Below the pieces are notes generated by a model that had not been told where the DNA came from, made no database searches, and saw only the letters and a program-made list of their open reading frames with translations. The position numbers and the translations under genes were made by a program. This document shows, in pieces, positions 477 to 64,000 of a stretch of DNA of 64,000 nucleotides. This stretch comes from an uncultured virus (IMG/VR IMGVR_UViG_3300027977_000026) (lineage: Duplodnaviria; Heunggongvirae; Uroviricota; Caudoviricetes), in IMG/VR virus record IMGVR_UViG_3300027977_000026. One strand, given 5' to 3'. Each line of letters opens with the position of its first letter. Positions within the stretch are counted from its first letter, which is position 1.

Positions 477-477
477 G

Positions 478-1473: not shown

Positions 1474-1497
1474 ACTTATTATTTATTAGTAAAGCAA

Positions 1498-2838: not shown

Positions 2839-2845
2839 ATATTAT

Positions 2846-3892: not shown

Positions 3893-3893
3893 G

Positions 3894-4646: not shown

Positions 4647-4661
4647 ATTATTATTTAGTGT

Positions 4662-9703: not shown

Positions 9704-12021
9704 ACATTATTTAATGGGTCATGGTTAGTGTAGGCAGATATCACCGTCAAAATGGGGCTCTTGACGTTGTAACTGTTGATAGTGTATATTTTGTGGATAG
9801 CTTCGCTACTAACATTAAAGAAATGATGCACTACATCAGTATCAGTAGCATATGTTGCATCTATGGTGTCGTTTATGTAGAAGGTAACAGAACCACCTCT
9901 TACACCTCTATAATTACCAGAATTTCCCCTGACGGTTAGTTTAGCTACTCCCCCATAGGGTGAATATGGATCAGGTGCATATGGATCAGGTGCATATGGA
10001 TCAGGGTAACTTGATATGACCCCTATGACCCCTCCATAGGGTGAATATGGATCAGGTGCATATGGATCAGGTGCATATGGATCAGGAATAGGATCAGGGT
10101 AATTGTTTCCCCATGCTACAAACTCTGGTTTGGACGGCACAGGCGATATGCTAACAGGGCTTTGCCCATAGGATACAGATGTACTATTAAGAGCTGAGGT
10201 GGATGTTGAACCCGCTCCTGAAGTGCCTGGATATGTTGGAGCAGTTGGATATGTTGTACCAGTAGTCAACGTGAGAACTGGACTTTTGCAGTTAAAATTG
10301 TTGGTTGTATGTATTTCATATGCAGTTCTCTCTTCAACATTGAAGAAGCTATGCACCACATCTGTGTCAGTAGCATATGTTGCATTTATGGATCCGTTCA
10401 AATAGAAGGAAATGGAGCTGCCTTTTATCCCTTTGTAACTACCAGAATTTCCCTTGACTACTAATTTACCCACACCTGCATAAGGTGAGTATGGATTAGG
10501 ATACCCATTCTCCCATGTTATGAATTCTGGCTTTGTTGGTGCAGGTGGGGTGTTGAGATAAAAAGTTCCTGATTTCAAATACACATTTTCTTGTGTAACT
10601 TCGTTCAAATAATATGCTTCAATGGTTCTTGGTGAGGATGTATTGCATGTATTCTCATTCACATAATATTGATTCTTAAATGCAGCATCAAATATCCTGG
10701 CACTCAGTGTGGGTGCACTCCCCACAATGCCAAAATTTGCAAAATTGGCTTGTGGGTTAAATGAAACTGCAGCTAATCCATTGTTTCCGTAAGGTATATC
10801 AGCAGGAATTACTGTAATATCTGACAATACCGCATTCACTGGCAAAGTTGGTACAACTGGACCGCAATATTCAGAGAAAGTAAGTCCAGCACCTTGCACA
10901 TAAGGTGCACCACTAGGATCAATTACTAATCCTGCATTGAATTGTTCCAATTCTTCTCCAGCTGATAAAAATGCTATGTGAGCAACTGGTCCCTCGGAAA
11001 CTATGGTTATGCCCACACAACCAGAGTATGAGTAATCCTCTCGAATATTACAATCTATGGAAATTGTGATGCCTGTGGCTTCTGGGATATTTGCATATGG
11101 TGCCCCACCTTCCACAGTCAACCCAGATCTTGGCAACAAATAAAAATCTTCTCCTCTTGCCAGATAAGCTGTGAGAGGATTTATAGTCACACCTGCACAT
11201 GCCACATACAAGTAATCAGTAGTAGGAGGCTCTATGCCTACTAAATCTGTAGGAGGTATAATCCTGTATCTAAACTCTGTGGGTCTGGCAGTAAGAGGTA
11301 TGGGCTCCACTAGATCAGGCAAAGCGGAAAGAGCAGATAACAAAGACAGGGGCGCTTGTGATAGTAGCAAGTTTGCATAAATTTGCTGCTCTTCTCTGTC
11401 TTCAAAAACCACCACCAAATTATATGTGGGCGACAACATTTGAGTATTCAGCAGTCCCACAGTATCATACAATTCCAGAATACCACATTGATAGCTACAA
11501 AGTGTAAAGTTCAAAGTGGTTATGCAACAATCGGATTTTATTACGCTTATGGAAGGAAAATATGATGTGATATAATTTTTACCTGGATTGTATGTATGCG
11601 AAACAATGGTCAACTTGGGTGATGGTGCAGAAGATATGGGACTGATTGTAGCATCTAAAGCATTCTCTTGTATAGGAGTTCCGTCACCGAAGTTATAGAG
11701 AATTTTTATAATTTTGGATGCTGATTCATCCAAACCACTCAATACAAAATTGACACCTGTTGTACAATACATTTTAACAGGAGATATGCTAACTGTTTCA
11801 AAACATACATCTTGATAACAAATATCATAAAATGGCCCTCCAGAAACAGTACTCGTGTACACAGTAGGTATCAAATCACCACCAAAGGCAGTTAAAGGAT
11901 ACCAAACGTTTATGCCTGAAACAGGATCAACAAATATCCAATGATCCAGTATATTGCACAAGTCATATGCTGATAATACACCTACTGGTGTTCCGGTTAT
12001 GTTAATAGTCCTAGTGTTCAT
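9697..12021 (-). CDS. Virion protein with PKD-like domain, two GAPY modules, duplicated C-terminal domain and PDPYA repeats
   Basis: 774 aa; YNFGDGT..SHTY; two copies of KPEF.W...GNSG.Y.G..G...ATYATDTDVVH.FFNV...KSP. Confidence 0.55.
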   Translation of the reverse strand: MNTRTINITGTPVGVLSAYDLCNILDHWIFVDPVSGINVWYPLTAFGGDLIPTVYTSTVSGGPFYDICYQDVCFETVSISPVKMYCTTGVNFVLSGLDESASKIIKILYNFGDGTPIQENALDATISPISSAPSPKLTIVSHTYNPGKNYITSYFPSISVIKSDCCITTLNFTLCSYQCGILELYDTVGLLNTQMLSPTYNLVVVFEDREEQQIYANLLLSQAPLSLLSALSALPDLVEPIPLTARPTEFRYRIIPPTDLVGIEPPTTDYLYVACAGVTINPLTAYLARGEDFYLLPRSGLTVEGGAPYANIPEATGITISIDCNIREDYSYSGCVGITIVSEGPVAHIAFLSAGEELEQFNAGLVIDPSGAPYVQGAGLTFSEYCGPVVPTLPVNAVLSDITVIPADIPYGNNGLAAVSFNPQANFANFGIVGSAPTLSARIFDAAFKNQYYVNENTCNTSSPRTIEAYYLNEVTQENVYLKSGTFYLNTPPAPTKPEFITWENGYPNPYSPYAGVGKLVVKGNSGSYKGIKGSSISFYLNGSINATYATDTDVVHSFFNVEERTAYEIHTTNNFNCKSPVLTLTTGTTYPTAPTYPGTSGAGSTSTSALNSTSVSYGQSPVSISPVPSKPEFVAWGNNYPDPIPDPYAPDPYAPDPYSPYGGVIGVISSYPDPYAPDPYAPDPYSPYGGVAKLTVRGNSGNYRGVRGGSVTFYINDTIDATYATDTDVVHHFFNVSSEAIHKIYTINSYNVKSPILTVISAYTNHDPLNNVC
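9953..10100 (-). repeat. Nested coding repeats: 15-bp unit (PDPYA) within an 81-bp-period duplicated block
   Basis: ccatagggtgaatatggatcaggtgcatatggatcaggtgcatatggatcagg at about 9953 and 10034. Confidence 0.9.
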
Positions 12022-25809: not shown

Positions 25810-26752
25810 TAGGGTTGATATCACTCAGAGCTAACATCATACAATAAAAGTTTATTTCCTGGTCAAGTACTAGGGCGCTCCGATACATGTATTCACCAAT
25901 GCAAATTAGCCAAAATTTTCTCTGATTTTCATTTATAGGGTAATTGCCTGAGCAAACTGCATCAAAAACACCCTTCATCAACATGGCATAGTCACCCCGG
26001 AATGATGCCTCATTCTCAATGATGAGTTTTCTTCCATTTAAAATCTTTTTATCAAGAATACATCTCATTACTTTATCTACAAATTCATCTGTGCTGGTTG
26101 TATCTGGTATGTTGAGATTGCCCTCAACACTAAATTTCTGCATCTCGTTAATGCATTTTCTAATGTCTGGGTAAAACTTGCGCACCAATGTAACTAGCTT
26201 GGTTTTATTGCTGTCATCCAGATTGACCTGCTCTCTTTTTAAGATACTATAACATCTCTTGAGTACTTCAGGCAAAGGTGGTGTAAGATCCATGGACTGA
26301 CATCTGCTCTGCAGAGGCTCAATTACTCTGTGAATATAGTTACAAGTCAGAATGAATCTACAATGAGAAGCATATTCCTCCATCACATTGCGCAACGACC
26401 TCTGTGCTTCAATAGACGCCATGCCATCCACCTCATCCAAAAATACAATCTTTCTATTGCCATTGAAACTTTTGGTTCTACTAAAATTGGTGATGACAGT
26501 GCGAACCTCTTCTATGCCTACCTCGGAGCAATTCTTATAAATGCTTTCAGCATCTAGTTCATTGATTAACACTTTTGCAGTGGATGTTTTGCCTATGCCT
26601 GCATGGCCTGAAAACAATAGGTTGGGTATTTCCTTATTCTTAACAAAGGAAGATAATATAGTTCTGTTATTTTCCACCAGTACCATGTCATCCAAGGTGG
26701 AAGGTCTATACTTCTCCACCCAAAAATTATCTACACCAATTTTATTTTCCAC
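25799..26752 (-). CDS. gp44: Clamp loader ATPase subunit (gp44/RFC-like)
   Basis: WVEKYRP, Walker A GHAGIGKT, DEVDG, LQSRC, PDIRK; start probably GTG 26752 (ORF track extends to 26776). Confidence 0.92.
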   Translation of the reverse strand: MENKIGVDNFWVEKYRPSTLDDMVLVENNRTILSSFVKNKEIPNLLFSGHAGIGKTSTAKVLINELDAESIYKNCSEVGIEEVRTVITNFSRTKSFNGNRKIVFLDEVDGMASIEAQRSLRNVMEEYASHCRFILTCNYIHRVIEPLQSRCQSMDLTPPLPEVLKRCYSILKREQVNLDDSNKTKLVTLVRKFYPDIRKCINEMQKFSVEGNLNIPDTTSTDEFVDKVMRCILDKKILNGRKLIIENEASFRGDYAMLMKGVFDAVCSGNYPINENQRKFWLICIGEYMYRSALVLDQEINFYCMMLALSDINPITS

Positions 26753-27185
26753 TGCTACCAATCCCTTTTTCACCACGATCTGTTTGTTGCACAGTGCCCC
26801 AATCCACTTTCATTTGAATATTGAAATGCAATACCAGCTGCGCTACCCTGTCACCCTTGACAACTGTATAAGGCACATCACTATGATTATACAATAGAAC
26901 ACCCAGATCGCCTCTATAATTCTGATCAACAACACCTGGGTGCGCCAAGATACCATGCTTGAAACTCAAACCAGATCTGGATGCAACCTTAATCCAGTAA
27001 CCTGGTTCCAAGTACGCTAACTTCAAACCAACAGGCACAGTGTATCTGCCTTTGGGTGGTATGACACAGTTGTCTACTGAGAATAAATCCCACCCAGCAT
27101 CAGTCTCATAGTTTTTTTCTGGTAATTTGGCATCTGTGTGGGTCTTTTCAAACCGCATAGAAGGCTCGTATGCTGGTAAATTCAT
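26742..27185 (-). CDS. dut: dUTPase (trimeric)
   Basis: AGWDL, SRSGL, GVVDQNYRG, GDRVAQL, RGEKGIGSSG; start set at ATG 27185 from promoter spacing. Confidence 0.95.
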   Translation of the reverse strand: MNLPAYEPSMRFEKTHTDAKLPEKNYETDAGWDLFSVDNCVIPPKGRYTVPVGLKLAYLEPGYWIKVASRSGLSFKHGILAHPGVVDQNYRGDLGVLLYNHSDVPYTVVKGDRVAQLVLHFNIQMKVDWGTVQQTDRGEKGIGSSGK

Positions 27186-27191
27186 ATTATC

Positions 27192-27219
27192 AATATAAAT
27201 TATATACACAGGATATCAA
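27192..27219 (-). promoter_or_regulatory. Sigma70-like promoter TTGATA-N16-TATATT for dut-gp44
   Basis: 6 nt before ATG 27185. Confidence 0.65.
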
Positions 27220-46319: not shown

Positions 46320-46610
46320 CTACTTAATAGTTCCCTTTAACTTGCAGTACTGTGCCCTGCAAACGGAAAATACATCAGAAGGCAACACTGTAACCAGATC
46401 CACTATCTTATTCTTAACACCCCTGTCAAACGCATCCATAGGCACTTTTCTTATGATCATCTTGGGTAAGCTCAGGAATATATTGTCTGTATCATCAGAC
46501 TCCATGTAAACCAGAAACTCACCAATATAATCACCAGTAACCACAGCGTAGGCACCTCTTCTCTTCAGAGAAGACGTTTTTTTAGAATTTAGATTAAAGA
46601 AGCTTAGCAT
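46320..46610 (-). CDS. Hypothetical protein
   Basis: ORF overlapping end of reductase; probable start ATG 46610 (MLSFF). Confidence 0.55.
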   Translation of the reverse strand: MLSFFNLNSKKTSSLKRRGAYAVVTGDYIGEFLVYMESDDTDNIFLSLPKMIIRKVPMDAFDRGVKNKIVDLVTVLPSDVFSVCRAQYCKLKGTIK

Positions 46611-47457
46611 ACTTGGAAATCTCCAATTCAAGAGACTCTTTGGCAGAAGGCAATCCTAATGAGAAGGATCTTATTTTTTCTGTGGACAATATGCAGTTGG
46701 ACCTACCAGCAACAATATCTAACTTGGACATGTCTACAAACTCCCAACCCTGATCGGCAATATTGTGTGCCTTGAATAATTCTATAATATCAGTTGCAGA
46801 GACTGCACCTTCATTCACTATGTTGTAAGGTCCTACAGGTAGATGCTTGTATATAAACAAAAATTTTAGAATAAAATTTGTCAAGTCATCTACGCTTGTT
46901 ACGCTGTTGGGCATATTAATGAGTTTTTTATAATTATAGATTTTATTAATATAATTTTTGTGCATGTTGGTACCATCAAAAGGCATTCTAATTCTTAGAG
47001 TATAAACATTCCAACCATCAAGATTGATTTCACAGGCATGTTTGCTCTTGCTATAGAAACTACTGGAATCGCTGTACATACCAAAATTAGGTACATCTGT
47101 TTCACTATAAATCTTATCATAGCCTGTATAGATGCAGCCACTGCTCACATTGATAACAGATATATCTGTGAGATTGCATGCAGCAGCAATATTTGAAGGT
47201 GTCTTTACATTCCAAAACCAACAATCTTGTTTGTTGGTCTCACAACCATCCACATTTGGAAATCCAGTATAACCTGAACAGTTGATAACACACTCAATTT
47301 CATCCTTATGTGCCTGTAGAAACGATCGCAAATGGTATGGTGAAGTGTAATCCAAATCAGACCTCTTCAAGCACATAACATCAAGCTTGCCTTCAATGAG
47401 CTTCTTTTCAAGAAAGGCACCAATATATCCTTTGCCCAGGATACAAATTTTCTTCAT
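46594..47457 (-). CDS. NDP-4-keto-6-deoxysugar epimerase/reductase (RmlD/UER1-like SDR)
   Basis: GKGYIG Rossmann motif, GYTGFPNVDGCE, SSGCIY, FYSKSK catalytic YxxxK, LRIRMP. Confidence 0.8.
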   Translation of the reverse strand: MKKICILGKGYIGAFLEKKLIEGKLDVMCLKRSDLDYTSPYHLRSFLQAHKDEIECVINCSGYTGFPNVDGCETNKQDCWFWNVKTPSNIAAACNLTDISVINVSSGCIYTGYDKIYSETDVPNFGMYSDSSSFYSKSKHACEINLDGWNVYTLRIRMPFDGTNMHKNYINKIYNYKKLINMPNSVTSVDDLTNFILKFLFIYKHLPVGPYNIVNEGAVSATDIIELFKAHNIADQGWEFVDMSKLDIVAGRSNCILSTEKIRSFSLGLPSAKESLELEISKYAKLL

Positions 47458-47458
47458 G

Positions 47459-47806
47459 CTATTGTTGTTCTTGCCCGTCACCGTTCTGATTATTGAACAG
47501 GAATTTGTTCAATGCAGCAGTCAAGGCATCAGCATCCATTTGATTTTTGGCATGTATAAAATTTTGTGCATTGCCCTTAAAATCATATCCAATTATAATG
47601 AATGCATTTAAAAACTCAGAAACCATGCTTGTCAGGGTGTGAATATTTTTTGTAGTTTCATTCTTTACATCAGATTGCTGAGCCAAATAGTCCTTCATTA
47701 CTGACTTTAAAAGACCCTCAATATCTTTCCTATCACTCTTAACAATCTTGGGTAATTTATTGTCATTATCCATGCCATCATTGCCCCGTTGTTTGTTTCG
47801 CTTCAC
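47459..47806 (-). CDS. Hypothetical protein
   Basis: Probable GTG start 47806, 5 nt after CCTAAATA late box. Confidence 0.55.
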   Translation of the reverse strand: MKRNKQRGNDGMDNDNKLPKIVKSDRKDIEGLLKSVMKDYLAQQSDVKNETTKNIHTLTSMVSEFLNAFIIIGYDFKGNAQNFIHAKNQMDADALTAALNKFLFNNQNGDGQEQQ

Positions 47807-52009: not shown

Positions 52010-53370
52010 GTTATTCCACCTAAGCTGGATAATGTTCTGGTGAAATCTTTTGCCTCATCACTCTCATTGATAGTTTCATCTTCTGAGATAGTGAGTGTGC
52101 TGTAATCGATCTTTAGTGCAATGCTACCAAAATTAGGCCCAAAGCGATTTTTGCTCATGCCCAGATTGATAAGACCCAATTCCTTGTCTTCATCTTTTTG
52201 CCAAATAGACATAATTGAATCAGCTGTAGTGGCCAGTCCAATACTCTCAGAGATCGTTTCAAGTCCTGGATTGTCTATATTGAATCCAGACCTATTAAGC
52301 TGTGTTGCAGAGATAATAGGGCAATTAATTTCATAACTTATGGCTCTCACCTGTTGTGCGCAATATAAAATACGCTCATAGCTATTATTGCCAATAGAGC
52401 TGCCAAGAAGGTTGAGATAATCTAGAACAATGGCATCCAATTTAATACCTTTTTGGCTCAACTTCAACAGAAAACCTTTCAACTGCTGAGGTGTTAGCGT
52501 GGATGGTGGAAACTCCTTAATAATAATCTTACCGGGCTTTTCTTTACCAATTTCATTAATTTGTGACTTAAGAGTTTCAGATTCTTCCTTGAGTCTACTC
52601 AGAGGTATTTTAGTAATATTAGAGAACAATCTTCTAGCGTACATATTCTCGCTCATTTCAAGTGAAATAAGCAAAACTGTTTTACCAGCCATGGCTATAT
52701 TACTAGCAATATTGCCAAGAAATACACTCTTACCAACATTTGTTTCCCCGGCAAATACATATAACGCTCTGCCATTTTCTAGAAAACCACCACCAAGCTT
52801 ATTGTCAAGCCACTTCCATCCAGTCTTAACATAGTTCTCCTCTTTATGGAGTTCCGCTAAAAAAGCATCAACATCTTTGAATAAGTCCAATCCTAGACTT
52901 TGAGTTAAATTTATATTAACGGATTTTTCAAATTTTAAAACCAGCTCCGCGGTGTCTAGTGATCTTGAATCTAGCTTTTCGGCTGCATCCAGGAGCGAGT
53001 GGTAGACTGCTTTCTCTTTTAAAAAAGCTTCTGTATTTGCTAACAACTCTGACTTAAAGAATTTTTTGTCAATGTCACTAAATGATGATACCACTTTTTT
53101 GAAGCTGTTCTTCAACTCTTCGGTATTTAAGTATGCCTTTATTTCTGAATTTGTAGGAATTGTATTATTTTTTACAAAAAATTCCTTAATAATAGAAAAG
53201 ATATTTTGTATATCCTTGTTTTTAAAATATTTTAATTCTATAAAATCTATGATGCTACCCAAATAGGGTGGGTCAGTTAGACTGTTGAATATTATTACGC
53301 TCTCATAAAAATCTAAATCTAGATTGCGCTTTAAATTTTTATCTTTATCTGTTGTACTTTGCTTCACCAT
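52006..53370 (-). CDS. gp41: Replicative DNA helicase, gp41/DnaB-like
   Basis: 454 aa; GETNVGKS, SLEM, IKEFPP, LDYLNL, ATQLNR, SESIGL, KNRFG. Confidence 0.95.
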   Translation of the reverse strand: MVKQSTTDKDKNLKRNLDLDFYESVIIFNSLTDPPYLGSIIDFIELKYFKNKDIQNIFSIIKEFFVKNNTIPTNSEIKAYLNTEELKNSFKKVVSSFSDIDKKFFKSELLANTEAFLKEKAVYHSLLDAAEKLDSRSLDTAELVLKFEKSVNINLTQSLGLDLFKDVDAFLAELHKEENYVKTGWKWLDNKLGGGFLENGRALYVFAGETNVGKSVFLGNIASNIAMAGKTVLLISLEMSENMYARRLFSNITKIPLSRLKEESETLKSQINEIGKEKPGKIIIKEFPPSTLTPQQLKGFLLKLSQKGIKLDAIVLDYLNLLGSSIGNNSYERILYCAQQVRAISYEINCPIISATQLNRSGFNIDNPGLETISESIGLATTADSIMSIWQKDEDKELGLINLGMSKNRFGPNFGSIALKIDYSTLTISEDETINESDEAKDFTRTLSSLGGIT

Positions 53371-54002
53371 TTGCTTATAAATTTCTTATTACTATCATTC
53401 CATGATTTATCATTGATATCTCTCAATCCCGGGCTTTCATGATATAATAATATAGGCCATACTCCAAGTTTCAATTTATTATAATTGCATGTAAGACTGA
53501 AGTCAATATCATAATGGTGCCATTGGAACGACTCATCAAATCTGGCTTTAGATTTCTTGATTCTTTCCGTGTTGAAGGCCAGGAAGACACCATCCAGAAG
53601 AGCCACACGTGAAGGCGTTTGACCGAAGTTTGTGAGCATCATGCTGCTTGTAGAATTGGGATGAGCAGCAATTCCCCTGCAGTCTTCCCTGCTCACCATC
53701 CAATGCCATAAATTCTTTTCAACTATTCTAGGATTTAATCCTCCTGCAACACCAATTACATCAAACTGTCTAGTGGCATCATACAAGCATTTTAAATTGG
53801 TATACTCAAGAGAAACATCGTGATGACAGAGTACAGTGATCTCATATTCTGCTTGTTCTATGATGTTATTGTAATATTCTGGCAATCCTTTTGTTTTGTT
53901 TTTATATTCTATGTGGAGTTTAGCCGAATCTTTATTCACATTAAACGTATTGTCAAGTAAGCAGTTACCGTCAAGAGGGCTTATACTAAATACACCAATC
54001 AT
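53364..54002 (-). CDS. GT-A fold (family 2-like) glycosyltransferase
   Basis: 212 aa; LCHHDV, VIGVAG, LDGVFLA, FDE...HHYDIDFSL. Confidence 0.7.
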   Translation of the reverse strand: MIGVFSISPLDGNCLLDNTFNVNKDSAKLHIEYKNKTKGLPEYYNNIIEQAEYEITVLCHHDVSLEYTNLKCLYDATRQFDVIGVAGGLNPRIVEKNLWHWMVSREDCRGIAAHPNSTSSMMLTNFGQTPSRVALLDGVFLAFNTERIKKSKARFDESFQWHHYDIDFSLTCNYNKLKLGVWPILLYHESPGLRDINDKSWNDSNKKFISKW

Positions 54003-54885: not shown

Positions 54886-55551
54886 TCAAGTACTGAACGG
54901 GCTATTAAAATCAAAATTACCAATGGATGTTAGTCCTTCAGGTGTCACATGAAACAGAACTCCTTCCTCAAGAGACTCTGATTCAGGGAATTTAATACTG
55001 CTAAAACTGTTTGAATAAATGTCAGCAAAAACTGTACTTCCACATCTTGCCACATATGTTTTAGCAGATCTCTTATTCACAATCCATAGACCGAAAGTAC
55101 CTTCTAAAAGAGACAAAGCCGAACATATGGCATCTGTTTCATCTAGATTTTTTGAATAGTTTTTAACACATGAAAATAAGAGAGGAATAACGCTAGAATC
55201 AACAGGATTCTTCCACTTTGGATCAAATTCATTTTTAATTTCATCAAAATTAGTCAATACTCCATTGTGTGCAACCAGCCAATCACCATGTTCAAATGGG
55301 TGGGATGTGTTGATTGAATAACCACGTTGTGTAGAAGTGGGTGCCTGTGTATGCCCAAGATATAAATCAAAATTTACATCTTCTGTATTCCTGAGCAATT
55401 TTGCTGGTTCAACCACACCTTCTTGCTTTCTAATGACCATGGCGGATTGGTTTAAAAATGTTGTACCTACAGCAAAATTGCCCCTCTTTTTGTTGAGATT
55501 ATAGAGTGTTAGAAATTTTTGCTTTTCAGTAGATCCAAAGATACCGCACAT
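54886..55551 (-). CDS. Class II (Ntn) glutamine amidotransferase, stand-alone
   Basis: 221 aa; MCGIFG, RG, GHTQAPT, HPF, AHNGVLTN, VDS. Confidence 0.88.
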   Translation of the reverse strand: MCGIFGSTEKQKFLTLYNLNKKRGNFAVGTTFLNQSAMVIRKQEGVVEPAKLLRNTEDVNFDLYLGHTQAPTSTQRGYSINTSHPFEHGDWLVAHNGVLTNFDEIKNEFDPKWKNPVDSSVIPLLFSCVKNYSKNLDETDAICSALSLLEGTFGLWIVNKRSAKTYVARCGSTVFADIYSNSFSSIKFPESESLEEGVLFHVTPEGLTSIGNFDFNSPFST

Positions 55552-56295
55552 TTAACTATTATAAGTATCGTACTCTATTTTTCTACAATTATATTTCGTC
55601 CAAACATTTGTTAGGTCTTGTTTGTATGACTGAGGATCAATGTATCCAGCATTTGCAAATCCTTTTATTCTCAAGGCGCTGCTTGCTGAATTGGCATCTG
55701 CTTTTTCTTCACCACTATAGCATGTATAAGTTTTACTAAATTTAACTTTTAATCTTATTCCCTCGAGTATAATATCTGCTTTATTCATTTTGATCAAAGG
55801 TGCTACAACTTCAATGTGATTTTCTCTATTCAATGCCAATACACTGTTCATGCAGGGTATGAATTCTGGACTAGCATCCCAATACCCAGCCAGGCTGTCA
55901 ACACCAGTGGCACCATGATAAATTTTTTGTGCGCCTACAGCTTCAGCATATGAAGCTGCAATGCTTAAGAAAGTCATGTTGCGATTAGGCACATAAGACT
56001 TTGGTTGGGCTTCACCTGCAACCTCTCTTATGTCCGGTGTGGGTATACTATCATTTGTCAAGCTACTGACTGGCGCTAGATCCTTAATGAACTGCACATT
56101 AACCATTTTAAACCATTGACACCCCAATTCATAAGCGTGCCAAGCTGCTAATTCCAATTCCCTGTAATGTCTCTGTCCATAATTATAAGCTATAGGAAAT
56201 ACATTTTCATGACCAACTTCTTCAACTGCCTTATACAGTAAGACGGTACTGTCCATTCCACCGCTTATTGGAATTGCAATTTTATTTTGGCTCAT
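55552..56295 (-). CDS. queC: QueC-like PP-loop ATPase with degenerate Zn site
   Basis: 247 aa; SGGMDS, YGQRH.RE, SSLT, YVPNRN, APL..MNKADI; TYTCY..DANSASS in place of CxxCxxC. Confidence 0.85.
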   Translation of the reverse strand: MSQNKIAIPISGGMDSTVLLYKAVEEVGHENVFPIAYNYGQRHYRELELAAWHAYELGCQWFKMVNVQFIKDLAPVSSLTNDSIPTPDIREVAGEAQPKSYVPNRNMTFLSIAASYAEAVGAQKIYHGATGVDSLAGYWDASPEFIPCMNSVLALNRENHIEVVAPLIKMNKADIILEGIRLKVKFSKTYTCYSGEEKADANSASSALRIKGFANAGYIDPQSYKQDLTNVWTKYNCRKIEYDTYNS

Positions 56296-56773
56296 GTGAT
56301 ATTTTCGTAAGCTCTGGTGAATATTGTGGAATTATTACAGCGCCCTGTGCATCCTTTATATTTTCAAATCTGGCCGTGCGTGCTCTTAGTTCACTTGAAG
56401 AGTAGGTATGCTGTCTTTTATGATAGAAAAGCTCAATGCCATTTTCAATGCAATACTGTTTACCGGTAAAATCTCGATTTTTGTATTCTTCACTCAAAAA
56501 GCGAATATGAATAGTTTGTGTTTTGAGAAGTTGGAGTAAATCAAACTCTGTTTCATAAACAATTATTTCATCAACATATCGACAAGCTTGTAACTGCACA
56601 AATCGTTCGTAAGAACTCTGCACAGGTCTATTCTTTATACCAGGTCTATCAACTGTTGGATCTATTTGCATGGCAGCAATCAAATGATCACATAGTTGCT
56701 TCTCCATTTTTAACATTGTCACATGGCCAGCATGCAACAAGTCAAAAGAACTACAATTAAACCCTATCTTCAC
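56282..56773 (-). CDS. Cytidylyltransferase (TagD-like HxGH nucleotidyltransferase)
   Basis: 163 aa; FDLLHAGH, ERFVQL..CRYVDE, YSSSELR. Confidence 0.85.
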   Translation of the reverse strand: MKIGFNCSSFDLLHAGHVTMLKMEKQLCDHLIAAMQIDPTVDRPGIKNRPVQSSYERFVQLQACRYVDEIIVYETEFDLLQLLKTQTIHIRFLSEEYKNRDFTGKQYCIENGIELFYHKRQHTYSSSELRARTARFENIKDAQGAVIIPQYSPELTKISHEPK

Positions 56774-57894
56774 ACGTCTTCTTTTGAAGATTTAACAGCT
56801 TTTGTACTCTTGGTAGGCTCTGCTGCATCACTAGTAGTACTACCATACTTGTATGCGGCTTCGAGCTTTTTATCAAGATGTGGAATTAACTCTTCAAAGA
56901 ATTTTGAATCCTTGGTGAAGTTTTTTGCATATCCCAACTTGGTACCATCAGGTCTTTGATATGTGGCACCAGTTTGAATGATGAGTCCATGATTAACTGC
57001 CATTTCAAGCAAGCCACTGTACTTGTCCAATCCAGTCAAGTAATTCAACTGAATACTTGCTTCTAGAAATGGTGGAACGAAGCGATTCTTCACTGTTAAC
57101 GCTCGCAATGTTACCCCACTGAAGTTTTTTGCTTCTGGAAGAATAGCATCATCTTCATTATTTGCATCCTGCTTCTCATTTCTCTTGGCCAACTGCACAA
57201 TGACGCTAGCCATGTACAATGGGCCACTACCGCCACTCTGATTTTGCACTAGAGAGGGATACAAAGAAGCAGGATCACTGTAAGTATGATTGGTCATTAA
57301 TATAGTAACACCAGCGCGACCTGCTTTGTAAGTCAATAAGCGTAACAAGCTTTTCAGCCCCTTTGCTCTTGTGCCCATGTCAGAGGCACCCTTGTCTTTC
57401 TCTGCATCAGTTACTTCTTTACTACTTGCAAGATTGCCCAAGCTATCCAAACTAATAATAAATTTACCTTGCATGTTGTGCTCCACAATACTATCAAGGA
57501 ATGTACTGATCTGATTGCGTGCATTTTCCACTGTGTACACTGGCACATATTTGGTCTTGTCAGGGTCTAGACCAACACCTGCAGTGGTATTCTTATCAAT
57601 GGCAAACTCTGTGTCAAAAATAACAGGTGTAATACCTTTCTTTTGAGCAAGACCAAGAATCTTATTAACCAACAAAGTCTTACCGGTCTGTGAGGGACCA
57701 GCAAAGATAACCAAACGACCCTTGGGTACACCGCCATCTTTTAGTTTGCCTGAGATAATTGCGTTCAATGCATAGCATCCAGTATCATACCAAGTATCCA
57801 CATTGCACAACGCATTCTCTGAGAGAAAGGTTGCCTCTGGATTGAGTGCATCTAACGTTTTAAATGCTTTTGAGAGTAATTCGTCTTGGTTCAT
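56770..57894 (-). CDS. uvsX: RecA-like recombinase UvsX
   Basis: 374 aa; DTGCYALNAIISG, GPSQTGKT, FDTE, LDSLGNL, DMGTRAK, TNHTY, SGGSG, KNRF. Confidence 0.93.
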   Translation of the reverse strand: MNQDELLSKAFKTLDALNPEATFLSENALCNVDTWYDTGCYALNAIISGKLKDGGVPKGRLVIFAGPSQTGKTLLVNKILGLAQKKGITPVIFDTEFAIDKNTTAGVGLDPDKTKYVPVYTVENARNQISTFLDSIVEHNMQGKFIISLDSLGNLASSKEVTDAEKDKGASDMGTRAKGLKSLLRLLTYKAGRAGVTILMTNHTYSDPASLYPSLVQNQSGGSGPLYMASVIVQLAKRNEKQDANNEDDAILPEAKNFSGVTLRALTVKNRFVPPFLEASIQLNYLTGLDKYSGLLEMAVNHGLIIQTGATYQRPDGTKLGYAKNFTKDSKFFEELIPHLDKKLEAAYKYGSTTSDAAEPTKSTKAVKSSKEDV

Positions 57895-58250
57895 TATTCG
57901 TCAAACAACTTGATAACAGACGTTTCACCGCCAGATTTCTGTTGAGGCACGGATGCAGGGGTACCAGCAGCAATGCGTTCATACTGAGAAATCAAACGTG
58001 CATCCAGTTCAGCATCAGTAGTGACAATCTTATCAAGAGGGAAGTTAAATGTAGCACCTTCCTTGCTTGAAGTAGTGAGAAACTCTCTAAAGAATAATGG
58101 AATTAGCTGCACTTGCAGTTGGCCTGATTGATTAGGCACAACATGAAGAATAGCAGGATCCCTTAGAGAGAGAGTAGTCTTACTCTCCCCCACTTGTTTC
58201 CCGATTACGGTTTGACCAACATGGTTAATAATTACTTTTATATCGCTCAT
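57894..58250 (-). CDS. Hypothetical small beta-rich protein
   Basis: 118 aa; first gene of uvsX operon, behind TTGATA-N16-TATATT. Confidence 0.6.
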   Translation of the reverse strand: MSDIKVIINHVGQTVIGKQVGESKTTLSLRDPAILHVVPNQSGQLQVQLIPLFFREFLTTSSKEGATFNFPLDKIVTTDAELDARLISQYERIAAGTPASVPQQKSGGETSVIKLFDE

Positions 58251-58256
58251 ATATAA

Positions 58257-58284
58257 AATATATATTAAACTTTTATAATATCAA
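58257..58284 (-). promoter_or_regulatory. Sigma70-like promoter TTGATA-N16-TATATT for uvsX-queC operon
   Basis: 6 nt before ATG 58250. Confidence 0.65.
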
Positions 58285-60866
58285 GCTAATAATTCAAACA
58301 AATCACATTGCATGGCTTCACCTGGTTTTCTTGGCGTCCAATTCACCGCCTCATAAAACCTCTCAACAGCGCTGTACAGTATTTTGTCAAACATCAAATC
58401 AACATCTGGCTCAAAAATTGTGTTGAATTCTTCTGGGTAATAGTATTTGTAAGCCACTGCGCTTATACCATACTTATTAGGTTGTTTAACATAGAAGAAT
58501 CTAATCTTATCACCACTTGCAATGAGCTCATACTTCTTGCTCATTTTCAATGTCTTGCACAGTGTATTGTGAAAGTAGGCAGCTTTAACATGCAATGGCA
58601 TAGATTTTATTGTCTTGAAACCTTCACATCTTGAGGAATATTTTTCATAGCCCTTCAGCCCCATGACAAAAGATATGTCAGCAACAGGCAGTTCTTTGAA
58701 CTTTCTATAAGCTTCATCCACCACCTCATTTGTTTTGACCTGGCTCTGGGTCAATAGCATGGTTTCAACAATTTTTTTAGCCAACGGCTTGATAGGTGCA
58801 GGCATGGTAGTGCGAGCAATCTCAACGCCTGTATACTTGAATTTATTAGTTGTAATACCTTCTTCATCGAGAATATGCAGAACATATCTTTTTTTCTGCA
58901 AATACAATGCAACATCACATATGGTTTCACGTTTAAACACAATCCTACTGTCCACAGTATTGAGATTTTCCTCACACCATTTCTTAATTTCCACATTCAG
59001 GTGATTTTCTATATCCATTACTTCATCATAAAAATGCTTGGATATTTTATCGTTATTCATGAATTCTAATCCACTATCCACAAGTAACGATAGAGAAGCA
59101 TGTACTGAATCAGTGTCATTGTATATAACACAGGAATACTCTTCAGGAGGTTTCATATTCTTTACCTTGAGCTTCTCTGCAATTAAATTATCTAAGATTT
59201 TGTTGCTTTGTTTGATTACTGCTTGACCAGTTAATGTAATGCTTCTGGCCAAATCATCGTCACCCAGCGGGAAAACTTTATTACCTAGGGCACCGTATAC
59301 AGAATTAATAAAGATTTTTATTGTATGTTGTCTGATGTTAAGTAAGCTTTGCTGGTCTTTTAATGTCTTGTATTCAGGTGTACCTTTCTGCAATGTAGAT
59401 ATTTGTCTGTTTACCTTGGAGAGTTCTTTTCTGATTTGAACTCTGAGTTTATAATAATGATCCACCATTTCAGGTATAATGCCTTTTGTTTTCTGGCTAA
59501 ACAAAACCTTGGCCTTGCTCAGTGTTAATTTCTCTTGTTTTACAAGCTGTGCAAATTTTGCTATGGATAGATCTACTACTCTACCGCTCACATCCCTGAT
59601 TGTTACAGTTTCTTTATCCTGTTTCTCGATTATACCCATCTTTGTCTCTGGTGACAGGTTAAGAGTAATCATAACAGATGGATACAAGCTGTTGGCATCA
59701 AAAGTTACTATATTTTTCTGAAAACCTCTCTGAGGTTCACTCACATAAGCACCTTCATTCTGGCTCCCGTCATCTTCACCCCTTATGAAGGTTGGGATTT
59801 TTTTATCTCTGTATCTAGCTCTAACCGCGCAGGCCCCTATGATTACACTCATACTACCCATGGCAGCTTCAAAAGTTGTTAAACCGAAATAACTTAATGA
59901 TCTTAATAATTCGAAATATTGTAATTTTTCCTCCATCTTCACAAGCAGTCTCACGTCCTGTACGTTGTATTCTACAAACTTGCTCCAATTCTCATCAGCC
60001 AAGCTACTCAAATTAGTTTCTCCATAGTCAATTTTCTGCTCATCAAGCTCTATCTTAGCTATACTATTCAGTTTGTAACTTGCTCTAAGTACCATGCAAA
60101 ACCGTTTGTAGATATCCAGATAATCCAAACATGATACACCATCAATAAACCATCTCACAGTTTGCCTGCCAAATGTTCCTTTCAATGTTTTGAAATAAAC
60201 TCTACCCGTGGGCGAGAGTCTGCCTACTTCCTCCTCACCAAATAAAACTTTAACCCTGTTAATAATATAGGGCAAGTCAAACAAAATGCTATTCCATCCA
60301 AGTAGAACATCTGGTGGGTCGTTCTGCATGAAAGTTAAAAACTTGTCAAACATCTCTTTCTCGGTTTTGCAGTAGTGAAATATTTGATCTTTGGAGTTGG
60401 ATGTGTGGGGCTTAATGCCCCAGGTGATGAATCTTCTGGACAATGAATCATATATGGTTATGACATTTACTGGGTGTTTAGCTTCTTCTGGTATGGGGAA
60501 CTCATCTGGTGAGTACGTTTCAATATCTAGATAGTAAATTTTTATTGGAAATTGAGAGAATTCTGGCGTTTCATTTACCTCCCAGAAGTTATCACATAAA
60601 AACTGCTGAGCAGGAGATAAATTTTCAAAGATTCTGGTTAGACCAACTTCTTTGATATATTTTGATTTCTCAAATTGATTTTTAAAGCTCTTCTTCTTTA
60701 AGGCAGTGTTAAAGATGCTAGTTGCATCAGTAGAGCCTTTTGATTCTACATATATGTAAGGGTTGTATGTGGAGTCTATAGCAATTCTGTTGCCTGCACT
60801 ATCCCAGGTGAAGAGTCTGATCAACTCACTTCTTGGATCGTATACAATATTCCTATATCCCTTCAT
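58281..60866 (-). CDS. gp43: Family B DNA polymerase, gp43-like
   Basis: 861 aa; DIET, FDLPY, YNVQD exonuclease; FDANSLYPS, KIFINSVYG, YNDTDS, KKRY. Confidence 0.97.
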   Translation of the reverse strand: MKGYRNIVYDPRSELIRLFTWDSAGNRIAIDSTYNPYIYVESKGSTDATSIFNTALKKKSFKNQFEKSKYIKEVGLTRIFENLSPAQQFLCDNFWEVNETPEFSQFPIKIYYLDIETYSPDEFPIPEEAKHPVNVITIYDSLSRRFITWGIKPHTSNSKDQIFHYCKTEKEMFDKFLTFMQNDPPDVLLGWNSILFDLPYIINRVKVLFGEEEVGRLSPTGRVYFKTLKGTFGRQTVRWFIDGVSCLDYLDIYKRFCMVLRASYKLNSIAKIELDEQKIDYGETNLSSLADENWSKFVEYNVQDVRLLVKMEEKLQYFELLRSLSYFGLTTFEAAMGSMSVIIGACAVRARYRDKKIPTFIRGEDDGSQNEGAYVSEPQRGFQKNIVTFDANSLYPSVMITLNLSPETKMGIIEKQDKETVTIRDVSGRVVDLSIAKFAQLVKQEKLTLSKAKVLFSQKTKGIIPEMVDHYYKLRVQIRKELSKVNRQISTLQKGTPEYKTLKDQQSLLNIRQHTIKIFINSVYGALGNKVFPLGDDDLARSITLTGQAVIKQSNKILDNLIAEKLKVKNMKPPEEYSCVIYNDTDSVHASLSLLVDSGLEFMNNDKISKHFYDEVMDIENHLNVEIKKWCEENLNTVDSRIVFKRETICDVALYLQKKRYVLHILDEEGITTNKFKYTGVEIARTTMPAPIKPLAKKIVETMLLTQSQVKTNEVVDEAYRKFKELPVADISFVMGLKGYEKYSSRCEGFKTIKSMPLHVKAAYFHNTLCKTLKMSKKYELIASGDKIRFFYVKQPNKYGISAVAYKYYYPEEFNTIFEPDVDLMFDKILYSAVERFYEAVNWTPRKPGEAMQCDLFELLA

Positions 60867-60900
60867 AATTTGATTTTATACTATATTTGATAAAATAATA

Positions 60901-61092
60901 GTGGAAAAGATTATGCAATTCTTTGAGCTCAGTCTGCCTTGCCCTCCGGAGATACAGGACTGTGACCGGCATAGATTGAACTATATGAATGAATTAGACA
61001 CATTGAAGAAATCTGGTGGGTGTGGTGGTTGTGCAGAACGTTCACTCAGAAATAGATATATTAGCCTACTACAGACATGTTTACAGAAATAA
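60901..61092 (+). CDS. Small Cys-rich hypothetical protein
   Basis: 63 aa; C..C and GGCGGC. Confidence 0.5.
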   Translation: MEKIMQFFELSLPCPPEIQDCDRHRLNYMNELDTLKKSGGCGGCAERSLRNRYISLLQTCLQK

Positions 61093-61412
61093 TATTATAT
61101 TTTTTGGGCTTATGCTCAGTATGTAGCTTTTTGCTCTTGTGGTTTGTTTCACCCCTCAAAATAACTCTAGCCAAATTGCTATTTAATGCAGACATAGTGG
61201 ATGTTAAGAATTTTGACGATCTAATATATCTTAAAAGTAAATATCTGTCCAAACTATCCTCTTGTTGGATATGCTGTAGTTTCTGGTCATCGCTGGCTGT
61301 GGGTATTGTCATGGCCATTGTATCGTCCAATCCTGTCTACCCTGTAATTACGTTCTGCACTTATCCTTGTCTAGCTTATGTTTTTAAACGTATCATTGAC
61401 CAAGACCGTTGA
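61077..61412 (+). CDS. Small membrane protein with CxxCxSxW motif (DUF1360-like)
   Basis: 111 aa; hydrophobic segments, LSSCWICCSFW. Confidence 0.55.
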   Translation: MFTEIILYFLGLCSVCSFLLLWFVSPLKITLAKLLFNADIVDVKNFDDLIYLKSKYLSKLSSCWICCSFWSSLAVGIVMAIVSSNPVYPVITFCTYPCLAYVFKRIIDQDR

Positions 61413-62643
61413 TGCGATTCAATCTGGTACGCTTTGGATCACCATAGGGATGACTGAATAATTCATAATAACACTGAATATTTTCTTGATTCTCTAGCCA
61501 TCTTGTGTCTGCATCTTTGCGTCCTTTGGCACACAGATTCATATATCTTCCCTTTTTGCTGAGCACATCATCTATCATGGTCAGCATCTCCTCACCAGTC
61601 TTAAATTTAAACTGAGCGTCCTCATATGTGCATAAATCTTGACATGCTATAGGAAGACCGAAGCTGTTGGCTTCTATTAGCTTCAAATCGGATTTGGACT
61701 TGTTGAAGTTATTGTCCTGCAATGGTGCAACAAGCATATTAACTTTAAGTTTTCTGATGGCCTCACCATAGTGGTAAAGATTGACCCATGGGTGGAATTC
61801 TACTGCACCTGAATCAACAAGTGGTTTGATTGGCAGTGGATAGGCACCTAGAAACACCCACTGATATTTGTGATGGGTATCATAGATAGCTTTGATAACA
61901 TGAGCAAAATCATCATTTTGGTTGACTCTATTCTCTACATCAAAATGTGCCCCAGATCCTGCATACAGAATTCTAGGTTTATTTTTGTGCGTATCATAAT
62001 TGGCACTTATTGCTTTTTCATCATAGAAATGACCTAGCCAGAATTTTGGTGGAAAGTTTGGAATGACGGTTACGTTCTGGTTACCAGTTTTTTCTTTGTA
62101 GTAGTTTTTCATGAAATCACATGTAACTGTAATTTCATCACACATGGACATTATCTCACAAGCATTCTGCCTGATCTGTGGATCAGTGAAAGCAGATTTA
62201 AATTTGTTATAATCAGGAATATCCTCATGAAATACTAGATCGTCAATCTCATATATGATCCTAAACCCTACCTGCTTTGAAACTTCTTTCAAGAACTTAA
62301 CAAACTGCAGTTGTGAAGATGTCGCTTGTCGTTGTATTCTCACAACCTTGGTGTTGATATAATATCTTGGATCCAACACCATCACTGTTGTACCGTGCAC
62401 ACAGAATTCACCGTAGGCATTGCAAAGGTGCTCTGGCCATATCATTCTCCAGAAACCACACCCAGAGTAATCTGCATAATACTGAATGACCCTTGGGTTG
62501 GTGATCTCAGGTGGTTGCGGCGATGTGGGTGCAATCATCGGCGCTTGTGACTGTTGATTGAAAGGATTATTTAAATAAGGTACACTTTGAAGAAGAGGTG
62601 ATGCAAAGGGGTTGCTGTTGAAAGGAGTACCGGTTGTATTCAT
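61393..62643 (-). CDS. GT-B fold glycosyltransferase
   Basis: 416 aa; ADYSGCGFWRM.WP, YEIDD, VIPN, YAGSGAH, APLQDNNFNKSKSDLKLIE. Confidence 0.75.
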   Translation of the reverse strand: MNTTGTPFNSNPFASPLLQSVPYLNNPFNQQSQAPMIAPTSPQPPEITNPRVIQYYADYSGCGFWRMIWPEHLCNAYGEFCVHGTTVMVLDPRYYINTKVVRIQRQATSSQLQFVKFLKEVSKQVGFRIIYEIDDLVFHEDIPDYNKFKSAFTDPQIRQNACEIMSMCDEITVTCDFMKNYYKEKTGNQNVTVIPNFPPKFWLGHFYDEKAISANYDTHKNKPRILYAGSGAHFDVENRVNQNDDFAHVIKAIYDTHHKYQWVFLGAYPLPIKPLVDSGAVEFHPWVNLYHYGEAIRKLKVNMLVAPLQDNNFNKSKSDLKLIEANSFGLPIACQDLCTYEDAQFKFKTGEEMLTMIDDVLSKKGRYMNLCAKGRKDADTRWLENQENIQCYYELFSHPYGDPKRTRLNRINGLGQ

Positions 62644-62677
62644 GTTTAATATATAACAAGTCTGCAGAATATATCAA

Positions 62678-64000
62678 CTACATTACCTTGAAAGGAAGTC
62701 TCGTGGTTATACCGTTCTTTTTCTCCAAATATATAACTTCTCCATTGCATACTTTAGTACATTCTTTTCTATGGGAAATTATGTAGATTCCAAGATTATA
62801 CAAGTTGACTTGTTCATTGAGAATATTTAAAACCAAATCAACACCAGTCTCATCTAGACTTGTATCCAGCAATTCATCGTAAAACTGTATGTTATAAAAT
62901 ACATTACCCTGGAGTCTGAGCATGTCAATAAAGGCAAACATGGTTGCTAAATCTATAACCTTTCTCTCTGCACCACTATAGTTAAAGTAGCTGGTGATCT
63001 TGCCTTTTTCATTAACGATTGTTTCATCAAACAGTTCGTTAAATGTTACAATAGCATTAGAATTGAGCTTTTTGAGGTATATATTGATTTTATTATTGAA
63101 TAACTTTAATATTTTCTTTACTATATAGCTCTTCACACCCTCTTCACTTACTACAAATTTGGATGCTTCGATTAAGCTTAGAACATTTTGAAGCTTATTA
63201 ATCTTTTCCGATATATCTGAAAGTTTTTTAGTATTTTCTTCTATCAATACATCTGAATTTTCATCTGCTATTTTGAGATGGTCAAAATCCTGTTGCAACT
63301 GCTCTAACAGAGTATCAATTTCTGTTAATCTCTTCTTGCTACTCTCAAACTTTTGCGAGTTAAGGTTGTGGAAATTTATATTATTATTGCCCTTTTTTAT
63401 TGCATCCATTATTTTAGTCTTGAGAATATTCAATTCTGAAACCTTATTTTCATTTAGCTTTATATCGTTCTCCGAATCTGTTATTTGTTTTTTGAGCTTT
63501 GCTTTTTCTTCTTTAATTAATCCTTTATCATGCTCTGTAACAGGCTTCAAGCACACTGGGCAGTTGTGTTTATCTGTGCCAATCTTGGATGAAGTTGCAA
63601 TGGCAAATTCATTCTTGGTTTCTAGAGATGCAATAACTTTAGAATATTCTCTAAGCTTATCATCACAATCTTCAAGCTTAACATTTAACTTTACAATATT
63701 AGCTTCTATTTCAGACACATTAATAGGTGCATAGTTGTTTGTAAAATCTAGAGTTGCCTCTTTCTCTTTATGCAGTTCTTTCTGTCTTATGTTTAATTGT
63801 GATCTTCTAAATTCAAAGTCTTTCTTTGTTTTTTCCTTTTGCTTGATTAAATTGTCTAGCATATTTTTTATTTCTTCCTCTCTTGCTAGATTCGCTTCAA
63901 GTTCTTTCTTAGTGGTGTTTAATTCATCTCTGATCATGTTAAGCATCTTGCTAAATACTTCCAGATTGAAGATACCCTCAATAAACTTTCTCTTTTCTAT
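62678..64000 (-). CDS. gp46: Recombination exonuclease ATPase subunit gp46 (Rad50/SbcC-like), 5' truncated
   Basis: Frame open to window edge (IEKRKFIEGIFNL); coiled coil, CPVC hook, YSGAE signature, DELLD, ISH. Confidence 0.92.
   Translation of the reverse strand: MEKRKFIEGIFNLEVFSKMLNMIRDELNTTKKELEANLAREEEIKNMLDNLIKQKEKTKKDFEFRRSQLNIRQKELHKEKEATLDFTNNYAPINVSEIEANIVKLNVKLEDCDDKLREYSKVIASLETKNEFAIATSSKIGTDKHNCPVCLKPVTEHDKGLIKEEKAKLKKQITDSENDIKLNENKVSELNILKTKIMDAIKKGNNNINFHNLNSQKFESSKKRLTEIDTLLEQLQQDFDHLKIADENSDVLIEENTKKLSDISEKINKLQNVLSLIEASKFVVSEEGVKSYIVKKILKLFNNKINIYLKKLNSNAIVTFNELFDETIVNEKGKITSYFNYSGAERKVIDLATMFAFIDMLRLQGNVFYNIQFYDELLDTSLDETGVDLVLNILNEQVNLYNLGIYIISHRKECTKVCNGEVIYLEKKNGITTRLPFKVM

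Follow-up and report, generated by a model that had tools for sequence, protein, structure and literature searches.

Canonical QueC, the preQ0-forming enzyme of 7-deazaguanine biosynthesis, uses two ATP and takes its nitrogen from free ammonia. A zinc motif has been described as a hallmark of the family, with zinc being required for function, and a zinc motif is also present in both Cap9 and QatC, the protein deazaguanylases of anti-phage systems which share the QueC fold (Libby et al., 2026; PMC13329287). Among phages that carry 7-deazaguanines in their DNA, vB_FspM_immuto_2-6A contains fdPreQ1 at 345,000 per 10^6 nucleotides, and its genome has been called completely modified (Cui et al., 2023; PMC10516641). 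Here, we describe a locus in 64,000 nucleotides of DNA from an uncultured virus (IMG/VR record IMGVR_UViG_3300027977_000026; this whole stretch is referred to below as the window) in which the gene for a cysteine-poor QueC is directly followed by one for a stand-alone class II glutaminase of the N-terminal nucleophile (Ntn) type. In our view, with a probability of roughly three in four, an uncultured T4-like phage uses these two proteins for preQ0 synthesis within a 7-deazaguanine DNA-hypermodification pathway whose genes are dispersed.

The genes for QueC (positions 55552-56295, minus strand, 247 amino acids) and the glutaminase (54886-55551, minus strand, 221 amino acids) are the last two of three abutting minus-strand open reading frames (ORFs) that close the uvsX transcription unit, the other being a nucleotidyltransferase (56282-56773, minus strand, 163 amino acids). 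The nucleotidyltransferase ORF shares 4 bases with the end of uvsX and 14 with the start of the QueC ORF, the first base of the glutaminase ORF directly follows the QueC stop, and a convergent plus-strand gene terminates at 54883, beside the glutaminase stop. A preliminary description of the locus had reported this packing of three genes after uvsX together with the SGGMDS, YGQRH and VPNRN motifs of QueC and the replacement of YPDC by YWDA, and in all these respects our examination agrees with it.

Membership of the QueC family is well supported by profile, sequence and fold comparisons. The protein matches PF06508 with an E value of 5e-49 (167 bits; cut-off 22) and passes the cut-off of the NCBIfam equivalog model TIGR00364 (156 bits, cut-off 150.3); it lies below that of the enterobacterial model NF008317 (124.5, cut-off 378). 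The closest sequences in the Protein Data Bank (PDB) are the QueC entries 2pg3 (E 6e-30) and 3bl5 (E 3e-21), followed in third place by Cap9 (E 1.9e-5). The AlphaFold2 (AF2) model, which has a mean predicted local distance difference test score (pLDDT) of 87 and a predicted template modelling score of 0.88, likewise has 2pg3 and 3bl5 as its top fold matches and then Cap9 (9nto_B, in the fourth row). A word-indexed protein search returned 1038 QueC relatives (protein clusters), 25 of which were aligned. The PP-loop SGGMDS occupies residues 11-16, and Ser11, Gly12, Gly13, Asp15 and Ser16 are invariant in three alignments; Tyr39, Gln41, Arg42, His43 and Glu46 (YGQRHYRE), Val102, Pro103, Arg105 and Asn106 (VPNRN), Tyr138 (YWDA) and Tyr193 (TCYSG) are invariant across the 25 aligned sequences. 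The residues reported as essential in Escherichia coli QueC are Tyr35, Arg99, Tyr131 and Tyr189 (Libby et al., 2026; PMC13329287), and their counterparts in the window protein fall in YGQRH, VPNRN, YWDA and TCYSG, respectively. Compared with the canonical enzymes 2pg3 and 3bl5, the window QueC thus shares the fold, the PP-loop, the YxQxHxxE and VPxRN motifs, the tyrosine of YPDC, the Cys-Tyr pair of the lid and the overall length. It differs in its zinc motif, in the alanine of YWDA, in a C-terminal extension and in having a glutaminase gene dedicated to it.

The zinc motif C(x)8CxxCxxC is absent. When the protein is aligned with zinc-type QueCs the four ligand positions are occupied by Cys192, Asp200, Ser203 and Ser206, so that one cysteine of the four is retained, an alteration that the preliminary description had correctly noted. 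The window sequence reads C-x7-D-x2-S-x2-S, and the pattern in the clade to which it belongs is C-x7-D-x2-S/T-x2-S. An extension of about 20 residues at the C-terminus (encoded by 55552-55620), absent from zinc-type QueCs, contains an invariant cysteine, Cys237, and is modelled with a pLDDT above 90. The 25 aligned homologues, which range down to 58% identity, all have Cys192, Asp200, Ser205, Ser206 and Cys237. The alanine of YWDA is a separate matter from the zinc site: alanine, glycine or threonine is also common at this position in zinc-type phage QueCs, and loss of the YPDC cysteine is therefore not diagnostic.

All four cysteines are present in 135 of the 150 best representatives of 50% clusters, and two or more are clearly missing from nine. 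A quick maximum-likelihood tree was built from 87 rows, 12 of the first 91 representatives having been left out because of their length; in it, 14 cysteine-poor rows including the window protein form a single clade with a value of 99 in the Shimodaira-Hasegawa-like approximate likelihood ratio test. The sister groups of this clade have all four cysteines, and a second cysteine-poor pair (P0134 and P0212) lies elsewhere in the tree. Strain-specific decay, which the preliminary description had named as an outcome that would speak against it, is not what the homologues display, as the signature is kept in 25 of 25 within a well supported clade; the alignments indicate that the loss of cysteines is a conserved trait of a clade of uncultured T4-like phages. 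The missing motif weakens the description of this protein as a canonical QueC, not the view that it works like one. We read the replaced ligands as a remodelled lid in which the canonical chemistry may be kept, and the extension bearing Cys237 could be part of the remodelled site. To call the protein zinc-less is likewise a reading of the replaced ligands, not a result.

The assignment of the glutaminase is supported at several levels. It matches PF13522 just above the cut-off (28 bits against 27), its best PHROG is phrog_12378 (E 1.9e-12), and its AF2 model (pLDDT 93.4) has the four-layer Ntn fold. The best fold match is the glutaminase domain of GlmS, with TM-scores normalized to the query (TMq) of 0.76-0.78; for entry 1xff the values are 0.77 for the query and 0.72 for the target, and PurF follows with TMq 0.72-0.73. 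The sequence starts with Met-Cys, and Cys2, Arg23, Gly24, His95-Asn96-Gly97 and Asp118 are invariant in 30 homologues. By analogy with GlmS, we take Cys2 to be the nucleophile, Asn96-Gly97 the oxyanion pair, and Asp118 and Arg23 the residues that bind glutamine. The protein is probably the ammonia donor to QueC, a role suggested by its family and by its position, and we infer that the two proteins are in contact.

The genes around QueC were compared in the best 80 loci among the 270 relatives recovered by an alignment-based scan of viral contigs. The conserved order is DNA polymerase, a small ORF, UvsX, QueC, glutaminase, a Glyco_tranf_2_5-like glycosyltransferase and helicase. The glutaminase accompanies QueC in 78 of the 80 loci, and the other two are on contigs that break off at queC or shortly behind it. 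The glycosyltransferase, which in the window occupies 53364-54002 on the minus strand, follows the glutaminase in 64. By comparison, only 11 of the 80 loci have the nucleotidyltransferase in the interval from uvsX to queC, with a homologue of 33-38% identity elsewhere in four more, and a thioredoxin-like ORF takes its slot in distant relatives. A functional link between QueC and the glutaminase, as anticipated in the preliminary description, is thus upheld, with a glutamine-dependent reaction on 7-carboxy-7-deazaguanine (CDG) as the likeliest chemistry; the three-gene cassette proposed there is not. The nucleotidyltransferase is TagD/RfaE-domain-II-like, with a HIGH motif. It matches PF01467 (E 1e-11) and phrog_7878 (E 1.7e-30), falls far under the cut-off of the RfaE domain II model TIGR02199 (62 bits against 181.5), and has viral proteins annotated 'Putative TagD' as its nearest Atlas clusters. 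Judged from this distribution, it is an unrelated accessory neighbour, inserted in a sub-clade and outside the deazaguanine module.

The preliminary description also stated that folE, queD, queE and dpdA are not recognizable in the window, and this holds. FolE, QueD, QueE and tRNA-guanine transglycosylase (TGT) families are missing among the 45 window ORFs searched against Pfam and the 48 searched against PHROGs, and FolE, QueD, QueE, QueF, DpdA3 and DpdN from relatives gave nothing better than E 0.3 by tblastn against the whole window. An orphan system, as this absence might suggest, is nevertheless not supported. A complete set of FolE, QueD, QueE, QueF, DpdA3 and DpdN is encoded 7-14.5 kb beyond the window, on flanking contigs whose identity to its ends is 99.3-100%; a complete canonical pathway elsewhere was part of what the preliminary description had named as speaking against it. 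On the right-hand side, an exact 40-base match to the end of the window identified contigs G025 and G026. Bases 1-6006 of G025 correspond to window positions 57995-64000 at 100% identity, and the first 2895 bases of G026 are likewise identical. G025 codes for FolE 10.1-10.8 kb beyond the window end (PF01227, E 1.9e-47), QueD at 11.3-11.9 kb (PF01242, E 1.6e-17) and QueE at 13.7-14.5 kb (66% identical to a phrog_2076 QueE), with a PhoH gene between QueD and QueE; the presence of QueD and QueE in the same genome is a further feature in common with canonical QueC. On the left-hand side, contig L145 matches window positions 1-10060 at 99.98% over 10,061 bases and overlaps L146/G027 at 99.975%. On the plus strand of G027 lie, in order, a full-length DpdA3-like ORF (1686-2423; phrog_19058, E 2.6e-59), a DpdN-like formyltransferase (Formyl_trans_N, E 2e-16), a 115-residue ORF followed by an AAA_28 protein, and a bimodular QueF (QueF_N, E 8e-34), the set from DpdA3 to QueF occupying the stretch 7.1-10.5 kb to the left of the window. 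Since the pathway genes begin just beyond its ends, it was the boundary of the window, not biology, that gave the locus its orphan look. Beyond QueE, the right-hand extension carries an IMPDH/GMP-reductase-like gene (L142:12252-13211), which also occurs in relative G014 (L130:8514-9557), within the deazaguanine genes or close to them, and may act on the guanine nucleotide pool.

The same genes recur in relatives that have a QueC of this clade. FolE was found in 17 and QueD in 18 of 23 large contigs, both of them in all three complete genomes; QueE is present in these three genomes and in G013. DpdA3-like genes occur in six of 24 records, again including the three complete genomes, and QueF stands beside them in four of five records searched, and altogether in G002-G005 and G014. 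In G006 the sole match of the QueF search falls inside FolE and is not a QueF, and the nearest record, the 26 kb G001, has neither a TGT nor a DpdA3-like gene. The DpdA3-like protein of G014 matches the phiST DpdA3 by blastp with E 1e-10, and all 23 of its matches are in DpdA3 phages (14 Campylobacter, four Flavobacterium immuto and five Cellulophaga records), which are among the DpdA3 carriers listed by Cui et al. (2023; PMC10516641).

Two ORFs in the vicinity of QueE and FolE in G013 were considered as hidden transglycosylases and rejected: a 290-residue ORF, which is of low complexity, and a DUF262-like ORF; neither matched a phage record. The bacterial DpdA has a ParB-like partner, DpdB. 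We note that a 251-residue ORF between FolE and QueD in G013 (L107:62-817) shows a weak match to GmrSD_N/DUF262 (ParB-like), with an E value of 2e-4 that is under the cut-off. In G004, a complete relative of 184.5 kb, a GNAT acetyltransferase (L131:5898-6443) occupies the DpdN-like slot between DpdA3 and AAA_28/QueF. An N-acetylated preQ1 base is a possibility in this phage; such a base is not among the eight derivatives given by Cui et al. (2023; PMC10516641).

Among cultured and chemically characterized phages, vB_FspM_immuto_2-6A provides a match. It has the same gene set and the same order of DpdA3, formyltransferase, AAA_28/'thymidylate kinase' and QueF. Its DpdN-like protein and its QueF both share 46% identity with their counterparts on the left-hand contig (E 4e-58 and 3e-84, respectively), and its DpdA3 is 44% identical to the DpdA3-like protein of G014. 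Its QueC, 26% identical to that of the window, also lacks the zinc cysteines, in this case all four with the first included, but is longer (293 residues) and keeps YPDC. The host and the phage backbone are different, and no homologue of the glutaminase was found by tblastn. The loss of cysteines in the immuto_2-6A protein, which lies near the second cysteine-poor group (P0134 and P0212), is apparently independent. The finding of a cysteine-poor QueC in a phage with a preQ0-derived DNA base is at present the strongest indication that QueCs of this type still form the nitrile, although the preQ0 of immuto_2-6A may be supplied by the host QueC instead.

The pathway that we propose would run as follows. 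FolE, QueD and QueE would convert GTP to CDG, which QueC would turn with ATP into the amide 7-amido-7-deazaguanine (ADG) and then into the nitrile preQ0, using ammonia released from glutamine by the adjacent Ntn glutaminase. QueF would reduce preQ0 to preQ1, and the base would be put into DNA by DpdA3 and formylated by the DpdN-like formyltransferase. What we observe directly are the genes with their motifs, synteny and co-occurrence, and from these we infer the product and the modified base. The phage DNA would carry formyl-preQ1 or a close relative in place of guanine, with protection from restriction as a likely benefit. Because QueF needs the nitrile preQ0, conversion of CDG to preQ0 is most likely retained by the QueC of this clade. 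A more extended proposal, which we put forward tentatively and at somewhat less than even odds, is that the QueC of this clade is independent of zinc, with Asp, Ser and Ser in place of three cysteines and the Cys237 segment closing the lid, and receives nitrogen channelled from the glutaminase. The pair would then be a two-subunit preQ0 synthase that has arisen at least twice in DpdA3 phages, possibly in response to metal scarcity in open water.

Several observations weigh against these interpretations. Zinc has been called a requirement for QueC, and the argument for preQ0 synthesis by a protein lacking the motif derives from its co-occurrence with QueF. Cys192, Asp200 and the clade-specific Cys237 could together make a metal site. 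The flanking genes were found on overlapping contigs from other samples, which represent the same or a nearly identical phage and not the same assembly. In distant members of the clade an opposite-strand gene separates queC from the glutaminase, and in one locus (L044) the glutaminase stop overlaps the start of the downstream glycosyltransferase. Finally, tblastn with the window glutaminase found no match in any Flavobacterium or Campylobacter phage record, and the glutaminase is probably dispensable, as the DpdA3 phages of these hosts show no detectable homologue.

The preliminary description proposed an altered chemistry in which QueC and the glutaminase would perhaps stop at ADG, and an amidine product, G+, may be considered along with it; in that case dADG or dG+ would be expected in the DNA. 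The loss of three of the four zinc ligands together with the YPDC cysteine is compatible with this idea, and there are precedents in the Gat-QueC of phage 9g, which leads to dG+ (Hutinet, 2019; PMC6884629), and in a QueC homologue of Campylobacter DpdA3 phages for which a role as ADG synthase has been put forward (Cui et al., 2023; PMC10516641). The bimodular QueF and the DpdN-like formyltransferase beside DpdA3 in the same genome, however, need preQ0 and preQ1, respectively, and YWD[A/G/T] is also found in zinc-type phage QueCs. The Campylobacter Firehammervirus phages CP220 and CPt10 are T4-like, have DpdA3 and carry queC near the DNA polymerase region, but the CPt10 homologue, 27% identical in the alignment, retains its cysteine cluster and PDC, and we therefore rejected the window QueC as its counterpart; these phages also lack a glutaminase homologue by tblastn. 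The Gat-QueC fusions of 9g/JenP2 and of archaea, which make archaeosine, similarly combine an Ntn glutaminase with a QueC-type PP-loop domain, but in one polypeptide with Gat first, whereas the window has two ORFs with QueC first. With 21% identity for the Gat domain of JenP2 (E 0.002) and 28% for its QueC domain, the similarity is weak and the order reversed, and the notion that the window pair is a split Gat-QueC was discarded. On balance, we consider an altered product unlikely. It is about equally improbable that the glutaminase serves the downstream glycosyltransferase or some other acceptor and stands by queC through inherited synteny of the replication module. The vertical conservation of the order from DNA polymerase through uvsX, queC, glutaminase and glycosyltransferase to helicase would fit such a case, as would the L044 overlap and the intervening opposite-strand gene mentioned above. 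Against it, homologues of the glutaminase directly follow a zinc-type QueC in KVP40, pf16 and Vibrio phage 2.275.O, where the surroundings are different. phrog_12378 includes KVP40.0125, the gene directly after the KVP40 QueC; in pf16 gp77 (the glutaminase) comes after gp78, and in Vibrio phage 2.275.O the two genes are separated by a 69-base gap. The glutaminases of these three phages are of the same family as that of the window and 27-29% identical to it. In KVP40 and pf16 the pair is clustered with FolE and QueF, QueF being beside QueC. The QueCs of both differ from that of the window in keeping all four cysteines, and KVP40 differs further in having a member of the nt-1 DpdA2 family (phrog_10773), not DpdA3. 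The pairing with a four-cysteine QueC and QueF in these two phages indicates that it is independent of the zinc question and compatible with a preQ0 product.

A role of phage-made preQ0 or preQ1 in raising the queuosine content of host tRNA, and not in modification of the phage's own DNA, would accord with the failure to find TGT (PF01702) in any of 23 relatives' contigs or DpdA2 (phrog_10773) and DpdA4 (PF20314) in any of five relatives' records. The CAjan DpdA1 protein and phrog_887 were also without a match in these five, which carries little weight as neither query matched anything anywhere, and DUF5591/ArcS gave only chance-level matches. The DpdA3 homologue and DpdN-like formyltransferase beside QueF are nevertheless the combination encoded by a phage whose DNA is fully modified, and we regard an auxiliary role of this kind as very unlikely. 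Least credible of all is that the three genes, acting as a cassette, amidate an NDP-sugar or a CDP-activated compound, or that they conjugate a deazaguanine to a protein in the manner of Cap9/QatC; both a sugar and a protein substrate had been entertained in the preliminary description, and no comparative evidence in their favour has emerged. The three genes do abut, several sugar genes are present in the window, and Cap9 appears among the PDB matches. Its similarity is much weaker than that of canonical QueC, however, the transferase is seldom found in the uvsX-queC gap, and no CD-NTase or QatA, QatB or QatD partner was detected among the 45 window ORFs in the Pfam scan, no PADLOC run having been made.

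The preQ0-synthase assignment therefore places the pair within a known pathway, and what is new is modest, namely a cysteine-poor QueC lineage and a recurrent pairing of QueC with a glutaminase. The results and discussion of Libby et al. (2026; PMC13329287) mention no cysteine-poor bona fide QueC, although the supplementary sequence network of that work might show such a group. Term searches of the main texts of Hutinet (2019; PMC6884629) and Cui et al. (2023; PMC10516641) revealed no mention of a zinc site in QueC or of a separate glutaminase, the supplementary table of the latter has no column for a stand-alone glutaminase, and a full-text literature search gave no paper on either feature, as judged by title and abstract. 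The analysis places a large uncultured T4-like clade (270 viral contigs, 1038 protein clusters) with the phages that are predicted to replace guanine by a preQ1-derived base, which bears on restriction evasion, on virome sequencing and base-calling and on host-range inference. A lineage in which three of the four ligands are consistently missing and the other essential residues are intact offers a natural test of the role of the zinc site. That a stand-alone glutaminase recurs behind QueC in four phage lineages points to a subunit for nitrogen supply, absent from the pathway tables now in use. If the extended proposal is true, a two-subunit, glutamine-dependent and zinc-independent preQ0 synthase would be a form of the enzyme that is not described in the literature examined.

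The phage itself is a deeply branching T4-like myovirus. The window codes for tail sheath and tube, baseplate wedge, terminase, clamp loader, a gp32-like single-stranded DNA-binding protein, primase, a gp41-like helicase, UvsX and a family B DNA polymerase. The best matches of this polymerase among cultured phages, to cyanomyoviruses, reach only about 30% identity, and the region gave no match to GenBank phages by megablast. Mosaicism around the locus is sharp. When window positions 54886-57894 are compared with the related locus L004, UvsX and the transferase are 97 and 98% identical, respectively, and the values for QueC, the glutaminase and the convergent ORF are 80, 53 and 43%; in a comparison with L012 the glutaminase is 83% and QueC 70% identical. 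A tandem repeat is suggested within a 446-residue ORF (1498-2838) by self-matches shifted by 87 bases (window 1681-2105). Other genes in the window include the N-terminal domain of a TnsA-like endonuclease (3-476, minus strand) and a dUTPase (26742-27209, minus strand). Several sugar-metabolism genes are present in this phage, and the window also contains an RmlD-like reductase/epimerase (46594-47481, minus strand) and a second glycosyltransferase (61393-62643, minus strand).

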